A DNA stretch of 11,922 nucleotides from Candidatus Heimdallarchaeota archaeon (GCA_030149205.1 JASBSB010000009.1:1-11922); one strand, 5' to 3'; positions 373 through 8,343 are shown, counted from the stretch's first letter. Numbers and translations: made by a program. The notes: generated from the letters alone by a model not told the origin.

Positions 373-1230
373 ATGTACATTCAACTTTTTTTCATTTTAA
401 TCAATATCTATTTTACATTAGGATTGATTATATTAGTGTTTTTGAACAATAACTTAATTCCTTCATTGAGGTATCAAAGGTATTCCCTACCGCATGGGTT
501 CAGATTATTGAGTCTCCCAGTTTCAGGAATAAGGTATTGGAAATTTGGAGCTGGGTCAGAATCTGTTATTCTTTTGCATGGTTGGACAGCAAACAGCGGC
601 ATGATGGTTAACAGGGCTAAAATTTATATGAAGAGGGGATTTACTGTATATCTGCTCGATGCACCCTCTCATGGGGTAAATAAAACAACGTTTTTCCCTA
701 ACACAGTACAATATGCAAGAGCATTGGATGAGTTAATTCTAACAGATAGGATAACTCAGCCCATACTCCATGGGGTTTCATTTGGTTCTATCGCCATAGT
801 TTTTGCTGTTTCCAGTAGGAAAGTTAAGGCTAAAGCTTTGGTTTTAGAAGCCTTACCTTCATCAATGGATCGGATATTCTTTGATATGATGAGATATGCT
901 CATATTCCTGTACCACTTTTTTACTGGGTGGGATGGATATCAACAGAGAGTATGAGGCATTATTTCTTGAGGACACAGACAAGATTTGACTTGACATCAA
1001 TTACTGTCCCTATATTCCTTATACACGGACAGCAGGATAAAATGTTTCCTTGCCAAGAAAACTTTGAGAAAAACAAGAAACTGCTAAATAACCTCAAAAA
1101 AAATTTTAGCTCTTGGGAGGTGGGAGGATCAAGTCACTCAGAAATGGACAAGAACAAGGAGTATCCTGAAAAACTGAATGAGTTTATTGATAAAGTCATA
1201 GGGGTAAACATTATTGGTGCAACAGTATAG
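373..1230 (+). CDS. Alpha/beta-fold hydrolase with N-terminal membrane anchor
   Basis: Hydrophobic residues about 3-24, oxyanion motif LLHGW, nucleophile elbow G-V-S136-F-G, HGQQD222 and SSH255 form a complete Ser-Asp-His triad. Confidence 0.9.
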   Translation: MYIQLFFILINIYFTLGLIILVFLNNNLIPSLRYQRYSLPHGFRLLSLPVSGIRYWKFGAGSESVILLHGWTANSGMMVNRAKIYMKRGFTVYLLDAPSHGVNKTTFFPNTVQYARALDELILTDRITQPILHGVSFGSIAIVFAVSSRKVKAKALVLEALPSSMDRIFFDMMRYAHIPVPLFYWVGWISTESMRHYFLRTQTRFDLTSITVPIFLIHGQQDKMFPCQENFEKNKKLLNNLKKNFSSWEVGGSSHSEMDKNKEYPEKLNEFIDKVIGVNIIGATV

Positions 1231-2083
1231 AACAGTCAGTGAGTTGATAACAAAGGGGGATTTAAGTGGTGCATTGAAATTGCTAGAAACTCTCCAAGGT
1301 GTCTCACAAACACAAAAAGGGTTACTTCTAAGTGAAATTTATGAAAAGCTTGGATTGTTTCAGAGGTCTTCTGAACAGATCTCTTTTCTTCTCAAGCAGT
1401 CGAATTTAATGTATCTCGAAAAAAGGAAAATAGAGCTTCAAAATTTATATACAATGTGGAGAATGGGTTCGATCGACTCATGCATTAAAGAAATAAAGAA
1501 ACACAGTCTAACCTACACCACAAAAGATGAGATGCGCATCTGTGGAAGGTTCGCAAATATATTTGGGTTAATTTATTGGACTAGGGGTAAGGAGATGACT
1601 GACCCAACGAGTTTGAGAATGGCATTGCAATTCCACTTACATTCCTTAGAGATACGTATAAGATTAGGTGATGCTACAGAAATGGCTTATAGTTTCAACA
1701 ACTTGGGTAACACGTTTATGTTTTTAGGTGACAAAAGTCAAGCATTTGAATACCTAACTATAGCACTATCTGTTAGAAAACATCTGAATGTTCAACCCGA
1801 CATAGCTACCACATTAAGAGATTTGGGGAGATTTCATCTTACAATGGGGGATCTTTCAGAGGCTGAAAGTTATCTACTTCAATCACTAGAAATTAGAGAA
1901 AAATTAAACAACCCTTTCGATTTAGCGAAATGTCATTTGACACTTGGGGAGATCTATGTAAAGCAGGGAAAAAAGGAGGGGGCTATATTTCATTTTACTA
2001 ACTCAATAGACTTTTTTTCACAGATAGGTCATAATTCACAGATTCAGAAGATTAAGGATCAAATCAGTAAGTTGACACAATAA
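1214..2083 (+). CDS. Tetratricopeptide repeat protein (about 40-aa spaced, TPR_12/MalT-like repeats)
   Basis: C-terminal half has repeats such as AYSFNNLGNTFMFLGD..A.EY...AL..R, ATTLRDLGRFHLTMGD..EAESYL.QSLEIR and AKCHLTLGEIYVKQG. TTG start (or GTG at 1217) overlaps the hydrolase end by 17 bp, with GGGGT 8 nt upstream. Confidence 0.9.
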   Translation: MVQQYRTVSELITKGDLSGALKLLETLQGVSQTQKGLLLSEIYEKLGLFQRSSEQISFLLKQSNLMYLEKRKIELQNLYTMWRMGSIDSCIKEIKKHSLTYTTKDEMRICGRFANIFGLIYWTRGKEMTDPTSLRMALQFHLHSLEIRIRLGDATEMAYSFNNLGNTFMFLGDKSQAFEYLTIALSVRKHLNVQPDIATTLRDLGRFHLTMGDLSEAESYLLQSLEIREKLNNPFDLAKCHLTLGEIYVKQGKKEGAIFHFTNSIDFFSQIGHNSQIQKIKDQISKLTQ

Positions 2084-2112
2084 GTTTTATTTGAAGAACC
2101 ATACACAGAGTT

Positions 2113-3024
2113 ATGGTGACAGAGCAAATGACTATGAGTAGATGGAAAATCTGGATACTCGCTATCCGTCCAAAAACTCTCCCAGCAGCAGTCAGTCCAG
2201 TGATTGTGGGGACAGCATTAGCGTATCATGACCACAAATTTAGGCTATTCATTGCTACTGCTGCATTGGTTGGTTCATTACTGCTCCAGATTCTTTCAAA
2301 TTTGGCAAATGATTATTATGATTTCATCAAAGGGGTTGATGATCACACACGCGTCGGACCAGTACGGGTAACTCAGTCTGGACTATTAACGCCAATACAG
2401 GTCAGAAATGGAGCTATTGTTGTCACATTATTAGCCATTGTTGATGGATTATATCTTATTTTTTCTAATGGAGGCCTGGTTGTGTTATTAATAGGGTTGT
2501 TCTCCATCATTTTTGCTATCATCTACAGTGGAGGTCCTTATCCACTAAGTAGTTTAGGTTTAGGTGATATCTTTGTTTTCATATTCTTTGGATTAATAGC
2601 TGTGCCTGGAACATATTATGTTCAGGCGTTGACTGTTACCACAGAGGTTTTTATCGCCTCAATCCCAGCAGGTCTACTCATCACTGCAATATTGGTTGTC
2701 AATAATTACAGGGATTTTGATAATGATTTGAAGGCAAACAAAAGAACCTTTGCCCATTTTCTGGGAAAACGTGGGACACGGTACTATTACTCATTTCTTG
2801 TCTTTGTTCCGTTTACCGTCTCATTTTTGTTCATTGGATTATATCCAAACAGTTTCAATTTTTGGTTGCTTTTGCCACTAATTTCCCTACCTCTTGCATT
2901 TCAGTTGGTCAAGCAGATCCACACTACAACTGAACTTCAAAGGTTTAACGTACTGTTGGGAAAGACCGCAATGTTTGGATTACTATTCAACCTTTTATTC
3001 TCATTGGGATTAATTTTAAGTTAG
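2113..3024 (+). CDS. menA: 1,4-dihydroxy-2-naphthoate prenyltransferase (UbiA superfamily, MenA)
   Basis: W..AIRPKTLPAA N-terminus, NLANDYYDFIKGVD, YSGGPYPL...GLGD..VF.FFG and VNNYRD..ND..A.KRT motifs, and multiple TM helices. The real start is probably ATG 2128, which has GGTGA 8 nt upstream. Confidence 0.93.
   Translation: MVTEQMTMSRWKIWILAIRPKTLPAAVSPVIVGTALAYHDHKFRLFIATAALVGSLLLQILSNLANDYYDFIKGVDDHTRVGPVRVTQSGLLTPIQVRNGAIVVTLLAIVDGLYLIFSNGGLVVLLIGLFSIIFAIIYSGGPYPLSSLGLGDIFVFIFFGLIAVPGTYYVQALTVTTEVFIASIPAGLLITAILVVNNYRDFDNDLKANKRTFAHFLGKRGTRYYYSFLVFVPFTVSFLFIGLYPNSFNFWLLLPLISLPLAFQLVKQIHTTTELQRFNVLLGKTAMFGLLFNLLFSLGLILS
2115..2119 (+). promoter_or_regulatory. Shine-Dalgarno-like GGTGA for menA (ATG 2128)
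   Basis: GGTGA is complementary to the 16S 3' tail UCACC, with an 8-nt spacer to the in-frame ATG at 2128. Confidence 0.55.
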
Positions 3025-3635
3025 CTAAAAAACAAATTTTCATAAGAATCTGAACTGGACGAATGAGGTTGGATATAAAGTTGACACTCAAACTGCTTTT
3101 CATCTGTGAATAGTCCAAGCTGCACGAGAAACAGGTTTTGTCCAGATTCGTATTGAGTTAACTTTTCAAATACCTCTTCTTTGACTCCATACCTGAATTG
3201 AGAGGCAAATTTCGGCATCGTATCAATTTTCATCATCTTATTCAAAGCAGCAACATATCTCAGGAGAATATTTGAACCAACCTCTTGCATCAGGGAACTT
3301 TGAAATTCATTTAAATCTTCGAACGAATTTATACTACCGGTGTTCACATTTGATAAAAGCGACAATATATTCTTTACGGAATCTAAGGTGAATACTACAG
3401 AAAGACGATACTTTATAGGGTTCTCTATATCCAGAAAATCAAATGCAATGGAGGTTCCATCTTCTATCTCATTCTCTTTTACGATTTTTGAGACGACTCC
3501 TTGTCTAACATAAGGGATTGTCATGTCAACATCGCGTGAAAATAGTTTAGTGAGAGCGATAGCTGCGTGTCCCGCCCCTACATTACCTGCCTCTTTGAAA
3601 GCTTCAATGACTAACTCAGAAAACTTATCACTCAT
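3021..3635 (-). CDS. cheC: CheC-family CheY-P phosphatase with one intact and one degenerate site
   Basis: EAFKE15AGN18VGAGHAA.AL..L...V....P41 matches E-x2-N-x22-P exactly. The second repeat reads SLMQE118VGS. Start overlaps the cheA stop (ATGA, 3632-3635). Confidence 0.88.
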   Translation of the reverse strand: MSDKFSELVIEAFKEAGNVGAGHAAIALTKLFSRDVDMTIPYVRQGVVSKIVKENEIEDGTSIAFDFLDIENPIKYRLSVVFTLDSVKNILSLLSNVNTGSINSFEDLNEFQSSLMQEVGSNILLRYVAALNKMMKIDTMPKFASQFRYGVKEEVFEKLTQYESGQNLFLVQLGLFTDEKQFECQLYIQPHSSSSDSYENLFFS

Positions 3636-5419
3636 GCAACCACCCTGAATTTGCTTGGGTCAATAACCATCATAACTGCTTGTTCTGTTCCTGTTACCAC
3701 ACCTTCGAAGATTTCAAGAGTTACAAGAAGTGGATTTAATTTCCGAACACTTAAGAGTCTTTCATCAACAATTTCATCAACCACGAGTGCAATCTGATGT
3801 GAAGCACCTCTACAGATCAATACAAGTTCCTGAGAGTTTAGTCCGTTTTCGTTGGGATCAAATAGCTTACGTAATAAAACCAGAGGATACTTTGCATCAT
3901 CAATTTTCACCTCTCCATGTGATTCTCCCCAAAGCTTGATACCTGAAGTATCAAGCAAATAAAATGCTTTTTCAACCTCTGATGATTGTATAGAATAGAG
4001 CTGATTAGAAACACGTACTATCAAATTCTTTGAGATGATATCCTGATCGGGAATTGTAATTGTGAAGGTGGTTCCTTTGTTCTTCTCCGATTCCACAGTT
4101 ATATTTCCACCGATTTCTTCAATTTTCGACTTCGCTGCATCGAGCCCAATCCCCCTTCCAGCAACCTTTTTAGCATTTTTTCTGGTTGAAAAACCTTCTA
4201 AGAAGAGCACATCGTATTTTGAAGATAACTGACCTTGTGTTTCTGCGTCTAGTTCTTTGAACTTCTCATTTACAACCTCCTCATCGATACCTCCACCATC
4301 ATCTGAAACTTTTATGATTACTTTCCCTCTGTCAGCAATACAGCTCATTTGGATTAAACCGACAACATTTTTACCTGACTCTGTTCGCTCATGAGATGCC
4401 TCAATCCCATGAATCACTGCATTTCTTACAATTTGGGTGAGTGGGTCAATAAGAACTGTTGCTAAAGCTCGATTAATTAAAATGAATCTTCCCTGAATTT
4501 GTAATTCTGCTTCTTTTAATTCTGATTCTGCAAGACGTTTAACCATACCTGGTAACGGTTCAAGGATGCTGTTTATAGCCACTTTTCTTAATTTTCTCAA
4601 ATCTTCCTCAATATGAGAAAAAGTTGAATCAATTTGAATAAATTTACTCTTCTGTTCCACACCAATTAGGTCTCCTCTAAGGTGTTCTAACTGAGTATTC
4701 AGAATTGTCAATGCCTGTTCCAAGTTCACAAGGTCATCTGAATCTATCTTTATTGACTGTCGTCGAATAGTTGAAACATGGTTTGTTGTATCACGTTCTT
4801 TCACTTCAATGGAAACATTACTCACGCTTGGTAATTTTAGAATGCGTTGATACAATACCTCATATGGTTCTAAAGTAGCTATTTCTACCTTCATGCTTTC
4901 AAAATTTAAATCCAACATTAAATCGTCACGTGATGGAGAACTCGACCTGATGTGAGCAAATCTCTTAATAGTGTTGAGTATTGCCAAGGCTCTAGCCGTC
5001 TTAATGGCTCGATCTGCCTTGATTTCAATGTCAATTTCATAAATTTTGTTACTCTTTATCAACACCGTCTCGAAACCAATTTTTCGTTCTAACTCCTGAA
5101 CCATCTCACCTGAAGGAGGATTTATTGAAATTTCTTTTAAAAGCAATTCAATCTTTACCTCCATCTCTAGGATGGATTCAACAGTTGATGCCTGTAATGA
5201 TGTTCCTTCTTGATGTATCCTCTCCTCAATCTCAGCTATGATTCCTGCACTGGAAGTCAATCCAACCGAACTAAAAAGCCCTTTGTAGGTATGATAAGCC
5301 CGTTTTAGTTCGCTTAAATTCTTATTTGTGATTTGTTCAGAGCTTAGGTTCATTGACTGAATTTCCTCATGAAAGTTTTCTATATCAGATACCCAAGCAT
5401 CCCATTCTGTTGTACTCAA
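3632..5419 (-). CDS. cheA: CheA-type histidine kinase (P1 HPt, P2, P3 dimerisation, P4 ATPase, P5 CheW-like), compact and divergent
   Basis: AYH43TYKG (HPt); P2-like YEIDIEI...KTARAL.IL..I......SSP; SIKID (P3 start); DPLTQIVRNAVIHGIE (N-box); VSDDGGGID (G1); GFST...GRGIGLD (F/G2); KGTTFTITIP; C-terminal CheW-like ALVVDEI. TTG start with GGAGG 8 nt upstream. Confidence 0.92.
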   Translation of the reverse strand: MSTTEWDAWVSDIENFHEEIQSMNLSSEQITNKNLSELKRAYHTYKGLFSSVGLTSSAGIIAEIEERIHQEGTSLQASTVESILEMEVKIELLLKEISINPPSGEMVQELERKIGFETVLIKSNKIYEIDIEIKADRAIKTARALAILNTIKRFAHIRSSSPSRDDLMLDLNFESMKVEIATLEPYEVLYQRILKLPSVSNVSIEVKERDTTNHVSTIRRQSIKIDSDDLVNLEQALTILNTQLEHLRGDLIGVEQKSKFIQIDSTFSHIEEDLRKLRKVAINSILEPLPGMVKRLAESELKEAELQIQGRFILINRALATVLIDPLTQIVRNAVIHGIEASHERTESGKNVVGLIQMSCIADRGKVIIKVSDDGGGIDEEVVNEKFKELDAETQGQLSSKYDVLFLEGFSTRKNAKKVAGRGIGLDAAKSKIEEIGGNITVESEKNKGTTFTITIPDQDIISKNLIVRVSNQLYSIQSSEVEKAFYLLDTSGIKLWGESHGEVKIDDAKYPLVLLRKLFDPNENGLNSQELVLICRGASHQIALVVDEIVDERLLSVRKLNPLLVTLEIFEGVVTGTEQAVMMVIDPSKFRVVA

Positions 5420-5420
5420 C

Positions 5421-5786
5421 TTAGACCCCTCCTAAAACACTATCCAAGCTTTCAACAACTTCCACTGGTTCGACGGGCTTGATTAAAAAATTTAAGGCTC
5501 CAAAGCTCAATGCTTTCCTGATCATCGGTTCATGGCCTAAAGCAGTAATCACAATAATTCTTGCATTTGGGTCTTGATCGACAATTTTCTTCACCGCTAT
5601 CAGCCCATTCTGTTCGGGCATAACTATATCCATTGTAACTGCATCAGGTTGACATTTCATATATAGGTCTATGGCTTCGTTTCCATTAGATGCCTGTCCC
5701 ACAACCTCATGACCCACTTTTTCTAAAGCTATCCGTAGTTTTGTTCGCATAAAATTTGAATCGTCAACTATCATTATTCGTGCCAT
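5421..5786 (-). CDS. cheY: Single-domain response regulator CheY
   Basis: IMIVD8D9S..MR, TMD53IVMP..NG, T81A, F100 and K103P are all present. The sequence style resembles Firmicutes/Thermotoga/archaeal CheY, and it sits between cheW-like genes and cheA. Confidence 0.95.
   Translation of the reverse strand: MARIMIVDDSNFMRTKLRIALEKVGHEVVGQASNGNEAIDLYMKCQPDAVTMDIVMPEQNGLIAVKKIVDQDPNARIIVITALGHEPMIRKALSFGALNFLIKPVEPVEVVESLDSVLGGV
5428..5432 (-). promoter_or_regulatory. Shine-Dalgarno GGAGG for cheA, inside the cheY 3' end
   Basis: The minus strand reads GGAGG-GGTCTAAG-TTG, an 8-nt spacer, which supports the TTG start at 5419. Confidence 0.65.
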
Positions 5787-5792
5787 TTTACA

Positions 5793-7619
5793 TCACTTAA
5801 TTAATTTAATTGGGATTTTATTGTCCCTTATTTGTAGAAAACTGAAATTGTTCTCCACTTGTATGTTGCTTTCCTCTGCAACCACCAATCTAGAGCTATC
5901 AATGATCTTATAGACCTTGTTTGAAACTGAATAAACGTATATAGGTTGGCCATCAGTGTCAATTAAATTCTCTACTACTTCTGTACCCTCACCCTTAATT
6001 TCTTGTATTTGAGTTACATCGATCGCTAAAGTTGGAAGATTTTGATCAAAAACAACAAGAAAGCTCTTAACATCTTCCTTCCATATCTTAAACCAATCAA
6101 ATTCAAATATTTCCTGTTGATGGATTTCTATTGAATGTGACTCTTTTAATGATTCATAAACTATTTTAATCTGCTTTTTATTTAGATCGATTAATGAGAC
6201 AAAATGACTGAGGTTGGGGATGACCACAAATTCTGAACCAGTATACAGTATATCAGAGAACCAATAAGAAGCAGTTTCCTTGTTCACCAATGAGGAAAGA
6301 CTCAGTGGAGCCTCAAATCTATCAACAGAATCCCCTCTAAACTCAATTAACTGATTGTCAGTTTGGATAATGACACTAAAGATACCCATATGCGTAGAAT
6401 CTATGTTTAAATACCTTTGGAGGTCAACAGAAGGCAACATTGAACCACCGTAAAGAGAAACACCTAATTGATTATCAATTGACTTAAAGACAGGATTGAA
6501 TCGTATCTCTTTGATTTGCTCTTCTCGGAAGATTACATTAGTTTTACCAGTCGTAAGTTTAATGAATGGCTGTGTTTTAAAATCAACATTCTCATCAACA
6601 GCTTTGGGAGACCTTCTGAGGAATTTCATCCAATTGCTTACAGAGGCAGTCAATAACTTTTTTGAAAGTAGAACCTTCCGAAGATATTCGCTATTAAGGA
6701 CAAAAATTGGTGTTTGGTATTTATCTATGAAGATATTTGAATATGGTAGGTTATTTGTGTCTGATATTTCTGAGGAAGTCTCAATGAATTTTTCAATAGA
6801 AAGAGCCTCTGAAACATCTTCTACTTCAATCCCGAATTTTCTTACATCCCTACCTACTATTACTAATTTTTGTGGGGTTTTTGATGTACTCAACCCTATG
6901 ATGTCCTCAATGTTCAAAATTGGAAGGTTAATTAGGTCAAACTCAGCGACACTTTTAATCAGGCTCTCACGAAAATTTAGTTCAACTTTGTGAAGATCAT
7001 CTGGGGACATAACTCTGAAAACCTCATATTCTGGAAGTAAGATATCCCCATTCAAAAATCTAAGACGTAGAAATTTATCCTTGACTTCATCAGATTTTAA
7101 ATGAAATTTTGATACTCCAGAGATTAATTGCCTCTGACTATTGGGAGATACCTCCGTCAGACCTTTCCAGTTTATTTCTTTGAAGATTTTCTGTGTCTCA
7201 GCTTCGAGTTCTTTGTAAAGCACAGATATCACAGCACTTAGATAGAATACCGTGTAAGGTAATTCCTCTATAAGCTCGAGGACAAAGGGTAATCCTGTTT
7301 TCTTCTCAGAAGGGGGTTGGTAGAGTTTTAGTGTTCTTCTCACCCCGAGGGGCAATTTTAAACAAATTAAATACTCTTGAAATTCAAGTAGAACTAGTAT
7401 ATCATCCAGCTTGTTTGATGACTTGTAGCCATAAAAATCTAGAAGGTCAACCACCAAGCTCAACCTGTTATCAAGGATCGTAACCCCTAGAACATAATTA
7501 GAGGTTAGAGGAAGTGGAGTAATCTGGTTTTTGTAATATTGATACTCATAAATTCTTGGATTTTTATCTAATTCCAACAGAAAGCGACGTTGGTTTAGTT
7601 CAAACTCCAAAAATTCCAT
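5793..7619 (-). CDS. Tandem multi-CheW-domain protein (three full and one truncated CheW-like repeats)
   Basis: Repeat 1 (about 1-135): FLEFEL...ITPLP....VLGV..L......VVDL. Repeat 2 (about 181-315): KFLRL...LPILNIEDIIG...FGIEVEDV. Repeat 3 (about 350-478): PFIKL...IKEI...LGV..YGG.MLPSVDL. Partial repeat 4 (about 518-608): SFLVVF...LAIDVTQIQEI. Coupled to upstream cheW by a TAATG overlap at 7617-7621. Domain calls are by eye. Confidence 0.75.
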   Translation of the reverse strand: MEFLEFELNQRRFLLELDKNPRIYEYQYYKNQITPLPLTSNYVLGVTILDNRLSLVVDLLDFYGYKSSNKLDDILVLLEFQEYLICLKLPLGVRRTLKLYQPPSEKKTGLPFVLELIEELPYTVFYLSAVISVLYKELEAETQKIFKEINWKGLTEVSPNSQRQLISGVSKFHLKSDEVKDKFLRLRFLNGDILLPEYEVFRVMSPDDLHKVELNFRESLIKSVAEFDLINLPILNIEDIIGLSTSKTPQKLVIVGRDVRKFGIEVEDVSEALSIEKFIETSSEISDTNNLPYSNIFIDKYQTPIFVLNSEYLRKVLLSKKLLTASVSNWMKFLRRSPKAVDENVDFKTQPFIKLTTGKTNVIFREEQIKEIRFNPVFKSIDNQLGVSLYGGSMLPSVDLQRYLNIDSTHMGIFSVIIQTDNQLIEFRGDSVDRFEAPLSLSSLVNKETASYWFSDILYTGSEFVVIPNLSHFVSLIDLNKKQIKIVYESLKESHSIEIHQQEIFEFDWFKIWKEDVKSFLVVFDQNLPTLAIDVTQIQEIKGEGTEVVENLIDTDGQPIYVYSVSNKVYKIIDSSRLVVAEESNIQVENNFSFLQIRDNKIPIKLIK

Positions 7620-8068
7620 TAGAATACCTCTAATATATTTCCGTCTAACTTCACCAGAAAATTTTCGGTGTCCAGCATCTGCACCTCGAGTGTATCTACT
7701 GTCAGAACCTCAGCTATGACCTCCTTAAATTTGCTTGGTTTTTTTAATTTCATACTCTTATCCACTTTAGTTTTTGTGGGCAGTTCATTAATAAAAATAC
7801 CAAAAAGATTCCCTTTGTATTCCAATACCAAAACATTGGTTGTAACCGAGAATTCTAGACCACCTGAGTATTTAGGATTAAGTCGCCTTTGAAAGTTTAT
7901 CACTGGAATCAATTCTGAATTCTGGTAAAGTATACCAGCTATTACCTCAGGTACTCTCGGGATTTGCATAAAGTTAGTCTCTGAAACTAAAACTACCTCT
8001 TTCACAATTTTCTCGTCAATGCCAAAAAAACTTTCCCCAGATCTAAACACTAATATTTCCTCGTACAC
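7619..8068 (-). CDS. cheW: CheW-like coupling protein
   Basis: ILVFR.G...FGI.....KEVV......QIPRVPEVIAGI.....LIPVINF...L...VLVL.....LFGIFINE fits the CheW pattern. GTG start with GAGGA 7 nt upstream. First gene of the operon. Confidence 0.85.
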   Translation of the reverse strand: MYEEILVFRSGESFFGIDEKIVKEVVLVSETNFMQIPRVPEVIAGILYQNSELIPVINFQRRLNPKYSGGLEFSVTTNVLVLEYKGNLFGIFINELPTKTKVDKSMKLKKPSKFKEVIAEVLTVDTLEVQMLDTENFLVKLDGNILEVF

Positions 8069-8075
8069 AAATTTG

Positions 8076-8080
8076 TCCTC
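8076..8080 (-). promoter_or_regulatory. Shine-Dalgarno-like GAGGA for cheW
   Basis: The minus strand reads GAGGA-CAAATTT-GTG. Confidence 0.55.
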
Positions 8081-8343
8081 TTAAAATTACAAACTATAAT
8101 CTTTTTTGGTTTTTAACTCTTTTGACTCTCAATCCTTTACGATTTCAGAATTTGGTTTTTCTTTGAGCCTATGTCATTACCATCAATTAAGTAAAATTAT
8201 GTTCTTCAATTTAGCAGAATTTACAAAATCATTCAGTGTGATTGCACATTGAGTGAAGTAAAACTATTGAAATTAAATTTACGGTTCAATAATTGAGATA
8301 GATGAGAGCAATTAGCTCTGAATTCTTCTCTAGAATCAAAGAT

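Follow-up and report, generated by a model that had tools for sequence, protein, structure and literature searches.

The window analysed here is the 11,922-bp contig C10, taken whole, of a 3.31-Mb, 12-contig metagenome-assembled genome (MAG) from the Heimdallarchaeia. On its minus strand, at positions 3021-8068, it contains five tightly packed chemosensory genes in the order cheW, multi-cheW, cheY, cheA and a cheC-like gene. Many Asgard archaea carry Che genes of the bacterial type. We consider it probable that this operon encodes the core components of a second chemosensory pathway, here called system 2, which coexists with a canonical Che set (system 1) in the same genome. It is likely to be a functional, streamlined pathway that combines a fused multi-CheW scaffold with receptors and adaptation enzymes encoded in trans and with an output other than the archaellum. 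The results do not show a receptor-less signalling system. A first, sequence-only reading of the window had described the operon as lacking receptors and adaptation, but the operon is not a self-contained system of that kind, because genes for receptors and adaptation enzymes are present elsewhere in the genome and within the orthologous operons of related archaea. In one family of Heimdallarchaeia, two paralogous Che systems have been stably retained side by side, and one of them is organised around a fused scaffold of three to six CheW domains.

Gene content and catalytic residues of the operon

The listing of open reading frames (ORFs) confirmed all gene junctions given in the sequence-only reading: cheW and multi-cheW overlap by 1 nt (TAATG), 6 nt separate multi-cheW from cheY and 1 nt separates cheY from cheA, and cheA and the cheC-like gene overlap by 4 nt (ATGA). 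The cheW gene (7619-8068, P0004) has a GTG start codon and encodes 149 amino acids that match the Pfam CheW domain with 45 bits. It is followed by the gene for the multi-CheW scaffold (5793-7619, P0001), a protein of 608 amino acids that scores 57 bits against the same Pfam domain over its whole length, in several stretches. The cheY gene (5421-5786, P0005) encodes 121 amino acids (Response_reg, 92 bits), the cheA gene (3632-5419, P0002) has a TTG start codon and encodes 595 amino acids, and the cheC-family gene (3021-3635, P0003) encodes 204 amino acids. All five are on the minus strand, and the frames of the operon are intact in at least six genomes of about 35% G+C. No genes for methyl-accepting chemotaxis proteins (MCPs), CheB, CheR, CheD, CheF or the archaellum were found anywhere in the window, which agrees with the sequence-only reading.

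The CheA protein contains the P1 domain with the phospho-accepting His43 in the sequence HTYKG (motif HxxKG), the P2 domain, the P3 dimerisation domain, the P4 domain in which the N, G1, F and G2 boxes are retained, and the CheW-like P5 domain. In Pfam, the Hpt match is weak (22 bits), and P2, HATPase_c and CheW were also matched. A profile comparison with the CheA structure of T. maritima (1b3q) aligned the P3-P5 domains over positions 222-596 with an E-value of 3.6e-60. The residues His43, Lys46, Gly47, Asn333, His337, Asp373-Gly377, Phe406 and Gly421-Gly425 are invariant in four orthologues. The CheY protein is a stand-alone receiver that retains Asp8, Asp9, Asp53, Thr81 and Lys103, and its best NCBIfam match is CheY_Halo with 108 bits, compared to a cut-off of 200.

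As a single sequence, the CheC-like protein falls under the Pfam cut-off (18 versus 22 bits), but a profile built from its alignment with orthologues matches the CheC structure 1xkr with an E-value of 7.5e-30, and 2f9z with a similar value of about 1e-29, which places the protein in the CheC fold. It also matches the NCBIfam model CheC_Thtogales with 61 bits. The active sites of CheC were defined as two D/S-x3-E-x2-N-x22-P motifs. The first site is retained as E-x3-E-x2-N-x22-P, while the asparagine of the second site is replaced by serine in every CheC of system 2; canonical CheC proteins keep the asparagine. The best NCBIfam models for CheA, CheY and CheC are CheA_Halo, CheY_Halo and CheC_Thtogales, and all three scores are far under the equivalog cut-offs.

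The multi-CheW scaffold

That the operon encodes a tandem CheW protein was borne out by Pfam, hhalign and Foldseek, which together identify three CheW-like domains and no other domain in P0001. In Pfam, residues 2-87 match CheW with 31 bits, and weaker signals are located near residues 232-277 and 374-434. A structure of the protein predicted with AlphaFold2 (AF2) from a five-row alignment was poor, with a mean predicted local distance difference test (pLDDT) score of 49, and was used solely for its secondary-structure pattern and for a Foldseek check. The pattern consists of four beta-rich modules, covering residues 1-125, 182-308, 349-468 and 511-606, which are joined by partly helical linkers. 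Against the PDB, the best 18 Foldseek matches were all to CheW or to the P5 domain of CheA, with E-values from 1e-6 to 2e-4.

Each of the four segments was aligned over five orthologues from the family and compared by hhalign to a CheW profile built for the analysis. The first domain (residues 1-125; window 7245-7619, minus strand) was recovered with a probability of 93%, in addition to its 31 bits in Pfam and its AF2 secondary structure. The second domain (residues 182-308; 6696-7076, minus strand) reached 98%, with 14.9 bits in Pfam, and the third (residues 349-468; 6216-6575, minus strand) 92.5%, with 13.5 bits. For the C-terminal beta-rich module (residues 511-606; 5802-6089, minus strand), which has AF2 strands of low confidence, the hhalign probabilities were 18% and 3%. 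This module may possibly be a truncated fourth CheW-like domain, a so far unconfirmed assignment for which its Atlas score of 0.86 provides a lead only. A complex prediction for the multi-CheW protein and the P5 domain of CheA gave a score of 0.01, which makes no call either way. An ORF of 165 amino acids located antisense to the multi-cheW gene (window 6496-6993, plus strand) is most likely spurious.

The number of domains differs between the orthologues. The same CheW hidden Markov model (HMM) identified three domains in an orthologue of 573 amino acids, four in one of 763, five in one of 960 and six in one of 1142, corresponding to a period of about 190 amino acids. Word-indexed searches of 5.8 billion proteins with P0001 and with an alignment (A1) returned the query alone, and an exhaustive phmmer search with P0001 against 1.84 billion representatives returned only one orthologue from the same genus (P0126), with 24% identity and an E-value of 4.5e-4. 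Among 301 sampled Asgard genomes, strong multi-CheW matches (E ≤ 1e-20) were limited to this order, with the families here called f1 (which includes the genome studied), f2 and f3, and to a single family of a second order (11 of 21 genomes); 24 other families had none. All lineages with multi-CheW lack CheF and, with one exception, archaellin. No description of multi-CheW proteins in Asgard archaea was found in the literature, of which the search covered a part.

Orthologous operons and phylogeny of CheA

The five-gene order is shared with a broad set of relatives. It recurs in three other genomes of the genus, in another genus of family f1, in families f2 and f3 of the same order, where it was found in three genome loci and three metagenome contigs, and in a second order of the same class, which is represented by two loci, one of them (L072) from a closed genome of 4.9 Mb. 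The more distant relatives add further genes to this core. The operon of families f2 and f3 has the gene order MCP-cheW-multi-cheW-cheY-cheA-cheC-cheD-cheR-cheB, while the copies in the second order contain cheB, cheR and, in one of them (L023), cheD, with no MCP within the stretch read. In both of the latter, an ORF of 242-247 amino acids is located directly upstream of cheW (L023, 4485-5213; L072, 18608-19351). The one in L023 has no Pfam match on record, and it may be a component specific to these operons of family f5.

Within the genus, an MCP gene encoding 382-404 amino acids with a multi-transmembrane N-terminus is located directly upstream of cheW in two genus mates (G001 and G002). In G001 and G003, a CheB without a receiver (REC) domain is encoded three genes downstream of the operon, separated from it by a TPR gene and menA. 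Across family f1, no flanking gene upstream of the operon or with a potential role in output is conserved beyond the five-gene core, and the association of menA, the TPR gene, the REC-less CheB and a hydrolase gene with the operon is conserved only within the genus. Gene order indicates that the ancestral neighbourhood is rearranged in this genome, and that the receptor gene and the gene for the REC-less CheB have moved away. The family-f1 operon would then be a streamlined derivative of a fuller ancestral MCP-cheW-multi-cheW-cheY-cheA-cheC-cheD-cheR-cheB operon, which survives in other Heimdallarchaeia.

In a phylogeny inferred from 62 CheA proteins, the Heimdallarchaeial sequences formed one clade with a support of 98 in the SH-like approximate likelihood-ratio test (SH-aLRT). 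The clade could be sorted into three subclades, one with the canonical CheA, one with the type encoded in the window (support 100), and one with the CheA from the full operons with multi-CheW. The best tree joined the window type with the full-operon type, with a support of only 36. Most of the family-f1 genomes searched contain both the canonical and the window type. The canonical CheA proteins are 62-65% identical within the genus and the window type about 45% in the same genomes, while the identity between the two types is 26-28%.

Receptors and adaptation enzymes encoded elsewhere in the genome

The description of the system as lacking receptors and adaptation enzymes applies to the operon but not to the organism, and the sequence-only reading had itself allowed for missing genes in other parts of the genome. 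A search of the whole genome with HMMs identified six MCP genes on other contigs (one on C1, three on C7, one on C8 and one on C9), a single CheR (C4:185568-187001), a single CheD and two CheB proteins, one with and one without the REC domain, while CheF, archaellin and ArlD/E gave no match. Of the findings that were expected to speak against a repurposed system, the standard set of receptors and adaptation enzymes was therefore present, but CheF and the archaellum were not found.

The canonical set is located at 121.9-130.7 kb on contig C1 and includes the sole CheD of the genome, CheC, CheY, a CheW of 268 amino acids, REC-CheB, another receiver protein and a CheA of 643 amino acids with all five Pfam domains. 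These genes (C1:121887-130667; L017, 6888-15668) are dispersed among unrelated genes, which comprise one for an MFS transporter, two MgtE-like genes and a PhoU/TrkA-C gene, and the 268-amino-acid CheW has a C-terminal tail with a weak match to Rho_N (20 bits). The REC-less CheB, of 308 amino acids, is encoded at C4:975442-976368 (L052, 6443-7369). It is flanked by two generic S-adenosylmethionine-dependent methyltransferase genes, with a UbiA-family gene of 544 amino acids nearby.

The best receptor candidate for system 2 would be the MCP encoded at C1:85551-86756 (L051, 6552-7757), which is 401 amino acids long, has a multi-transmembrane N-terminus and is convergent with a gene for a RadA paralogue. 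The MCP adjacent to the operon in G002 is 46% identical to it over 375 amino acids, and is also its best match in the genus when the N-terminal sensor module is used as the query. This module was found in eight of the 11 other genomes of family f1 and in none of 35 genomes from the other families of the order. The genomes that have the module are kin, and the pattern counts as one association at the level of the clade rather than as independent evidence. In a rough length check, the distance from the hairpin tip to the C-terminus was about 108 amino acids. The signalling domain is clearly shorter than in the aligned 44-heptad receptor of T. maritima, which would point to a receptor class of lesser length.

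We propose that CheW and the multi-CheW scaffold tie CheA, via its P5 domain, to membrane-bound MCPs that are encoded elsewhere in the genome. The 401-amino-acid MCP may serve as such a receptor, as its orthologue abuts the operon in genus mates, although the assignment of each MCP to system 1 or system 2 is inferred only. CheA would phosphorylate CheY, and the CheC-like protein would remove the phosphate. Adaptation could be provided by the REC-less CheB together with the only CheR and CheD of the genome, which system 1 may also use.

Archaellum genes and candidate outputs

No match to CheF (PF04283), archaellin (PF01917) or ArlD/E (PF04659) was obtained in this genome (G000), which is estimated to be 93.5% complete with 2.8% contamination. 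CheF likewise gave no match in any of the 47 genomes of the order or in any of the 22 genomes of the sister family f5, among them the closed genome. Archaellin was identified above the cut-off in one of the 47 genomes of the order and in none of the 22 from family f5. The single archaellin-family match (G008:C52:5454-6020, L049), of 59 bits, is found in a genome that likewise lacks CheF; it may represent a pilin-like protein, a true archaellin or contamination. Because CheF, archaellin and ArlD/E were not found, neither of the two Che systems is predicted to target an archaellum here, and the gene inventory indicates that the output of the operon is non-archaellar.

A possible non-archaellar surface machine is encoded on contig C4 (about 48680-55100; L067, 2681-9106), where a PilB3-type T2SSE ATPase gene and two T2SSF platform genes are located together with a JAB/MPN protease gene and AAA genes. 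This is a simple type IV filament locus, in agreement with the report that a few Heimdallarchaea encode type IV filament machineries consisting of the core only (PMC13705601). No link between this locus and the Che genes was seen. A type IV filament and the cytoskeleton are candidates for the output of system 2.

Loss of the conserved CheW arginine and alternative explanations

The single CheW belongs to the CheW fold (45 bits in Pfam and 65 bits with our own CheW HMM; no NCBIfam match), but it lacks the arginine of the NxRG motif, which corresponds to Arg62 in E. coli, and reads YQNS at this site. To survey this residue, the domains were aligned to the CheW HMM. The arginine is kept in all six single CheW proteins of the canonical and full-operon types and in about half of the domains in the multi-CheW proteins of the full operons, and in none of the CheA P5 domains scored. 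In the six-domain scaffold of 1142 amino acids (G022; L042, 5431-8859), the residues at this position are, along the chain, S, R, H, R, Y and K. The pattern recalls the alternation of CheW and P5 in the rings of the chemosensory array, and no clean alternation is seen in the other orthologues.

Several observations weigh against a streamlined pathway that still operates with receptors in trans. The arginine is kept in none of the five single CheW proteins from family f1 and in none of the 20 multi-CheW domains scored from this family. In this genome, the operon has neither a receptor gene nor an adaptation gene linked to it. The scaffolds have diverged very rapidly, with identities within the genus of only 22-28% for multi-CheW and 26-30% for CheW, compared to 73-77% for CheY, 49-53% for CheC and about 45% for CheA. 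The stem branch of the window-type CheA is furthermore 1.89 substitutions per site long. Taken together, the loss of the arginine, the removal of cheD, cheR and REC-cheB from the operon, the long CheA branch and the fast-evolving scaffolds show the family-f1 system to be a derived form, whose coupling appears to be altered.

These four features also count in favour of an alternative, in which the module has been repurposed and uncoupled from receptors, so that the multi-CheW platform no longer relays signals from MCPs but responds to another input and controls a non-motility or cytoskeletal output. The equivalent of Arg62 is lost in all 25 CheW-like domains scored in family f1, and CheF and archaellin are absent, with one archaellin exception, from the genome and from 69 relatives. 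However, two genus mates have an MCP with a canonical hairpin tip next to the operon, two have a CheB gene nearby, CheA still contains P5, and a single-domain CheW has been kept as a protein of its own. The salt bridge between Arg62 and Glu38 in CheW is also not needed for binding (Ortega et al., PMC3828127). We consider such an uncoupling possible but doubtful.

A related and similarly tentative scenario is that the coupling in the second module has changed. The Arg62-Glu38 bridge determines how the sites for receptor and kinase are placed relative to each other, and is hence needed for signalling (PMC3828127), and its arginine is missing from the CheW, from all multi-CheW domains and from the P5 domain of CheA. 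The module could then form a covalently pre-linked baseplate that either engages the family-specific multi-transmembrane receptors of about 400 amino acids in a new geometry or functions independently of receptors. In these close relatives of eukaryotes, it might steer a non-archaellar behaviour that involves, for example, a type IV filament or the cytoskeleton. In the sister lineages, scaffolds of three to six domains may take the place of entire CheW rings in the array. The sequence-only reading had likewise proposed a non-standard input through the tandem CheW protein, with non-archaellar motility or cell-shape control as a possible output. Non-standard coupling with a non-archaellar output is still a live reading for family f1, consistent with the absence of CheF and archaellin, the long CheA branch and the loss of the arginine, but receptors do exist in the genome.

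A redundant second Che system could also be drifting towards loss after the removal of its receptor and adaptation genes. The very low conservation of the scaffolds, the unconfirmed and possibly truncated fourth domain, and the low family scores (18 versus 22 bits for CheC, and no NCBIfam match for either CheW protein) are consistent with decay. Against this, the AT-rich genome keeps all five frames open, including those of 608 and 595 amino acids, at least five other genomes have the same set in intact form, the catalytic residues of CheA and CheY are all invariant, and the tight gene junctions have been preserved, which makes decay improbable. Pseudogenisation was rejected since both frames and motifs are intact.

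It is highly improbable that the inventory of this genome is inapplicable because the contig was binned from another organism: although the contig is short and stand-alone in a MAG with some estimated contamination, its G+C content of 0.367 is within the range of the other contigs (0.34-0.38), and the operon, menA and the TPR gene are syntenic in three genus mates from the Heimdallarchaeota, each with a canonical CheA. The small-subunit rRNA in the assembly matches the archaeal model RF01959 with 1198 bits. A bacterial origin of the window, or bacterial contamination, was rejected on the basis of the synteny with the genus mates.

A streamlined second pathway with receptors in trans is thus the explanation that we favour. 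The loss of the arginine in family f1 represents a natural experiment on this conserved CheW residue, and system 2 of the Heimdallarchaeia provides concrete targets for cryo-electron tomography of arrays, for reconstitution and for the search for partners.

Genes and regions flanking the operon

The operon is bounded as in the sequence-only reading, with a convergent menA on one side and a 275-bp non-coding gap on the other. The gap (8069-8343, upstream of the operon on the minus strand) is AT-rich and is presumed to act as the promoter region. No Rfam family was matched in the window, including this region, and the sequence GAGGA is located 7 nt ahead of the GTG start codon of cheW. Farther upstream are genes for a peroxiredoxin and an S8 subtilase, as identified by Pfam.

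The menA gene (2113-3024, plus strand) encodes a 1,4-dihydroxy-2-naphthoate (DHNA) polyprenyltransferase, with an equivalog match in NCBIfam of 318 bits compared to a cut-off of 264. It is a neighbour of the operon in the genus mates by synteny and not a part of the Che system. A TPR protein of 289 amino acids (1214-2083, plus strand; TPR_12 in Pfam) is encoded beside it. A TPR gene is found beside operons of this type in five of the other loci, two of which are from genus mates, which gives a weak lead that it may be tied to signalling. In the region 373-3024, menA and the TPR gene are accompanied by a gene for an alpha/beta hydrolase with a faint similarity to MenH/BioH. The menaquinone-related pair of menA and the hydrolase gene stays beside the Che operon within the genus.

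Comparison with known chemosensory systems

In the classification of Wuichet and Zhulin, the F1 class of chemosensory systems reportedly comprises systems from Archaea, Firmicutes and Thermotogae. From its gene content, from what is generally held about this class and from the best NCBIfam matches, we take the operon to be F1-like. It resembles F1 systems in that CheA contains the domains P1-P5, including P2, in that the gene for a predicted phosphatase of the CheC family directly follows cheA, and in that the fuller orthologous operons contain CheD, CheR and CheB, with best NCBIfam matches to haloarchaeal and Thermotogales models. The full F1 set (CheC, CheD, CheA, CheW, CheY, CheB, CheR and MCP) is found in the operons of the other families, and its members are unlinked in this genome. 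Unlike F1 systems, the operon in the window has an additional multi-cheW gene and lacks CheD, CheR, REC-CheB and MCP genes, the signalling domain of the candidate MCP is short, the scores are far under the equivalog cut-offs, and CheF and the archaellum are missing.

The system is also similar to the euryarchaeal switch pathway, in which signals are transferred from CheY via CheF to ArlCDE, in that it has an archaeal phosphorelay from CheA to CheY with CheC. However, it differs from that pathway, as searches of this genome gave no match to CheF, archaellin or ArlD/E. Among the Asgard archaea, the chemotaxis passages of one study report Che genes in 27 of 97 MAGs of Loki- and Heimdallarchaeia, as well as putative chemoreceptor arrays in L. 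ossiferum (Rodrigues-Oliveira et al. 2022, PMC9834061). Neither these passages nor the other literature found mentions a multi-CheW scaffold or two paralogous Che systems. Archaellum genes have been reported in L. ossiferum (PMC13705601), in which it differs from the order studied here.

Multi-domain CheW proteins are known but rare, and have been catalogued in two types, CheW.II and CheW.III (Vass, Bourret and Foster, 10.1101/2022.05.07.491037). The second type is a marker of the F9 systems, such as the cytoplasmic arrays of cluster I in Vibrio cholerae, and both types have been proposed to serve unusual receptors rather than to replace CheW (10.1101/2022.05.07.491037). The scaffold described here differs from these proteins in its archaeal host and in its number of domains, which is three to four here and three to six in the relatives, compared to two to three in CheW.II and CheW.III. 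It also differs in its partners, which are F1-like by gene content (CheC, CheD and a CheA with P2) and not of the F8/ACF type associated with CheW.II or the F9 type associated with CheW.III. Moreover, the domains encoded in the window lack the conserved arginine, unlike the Class 1 CheW-like domains of CheW.II and CheW.III (10.1101/2022.05.07.491037). In its overall design, however, the scaffold is similar to CheW.II and CheW.III, as it consists of tandem CheW-like domains alone and is encoded beside a single-domain CheW and CheA.

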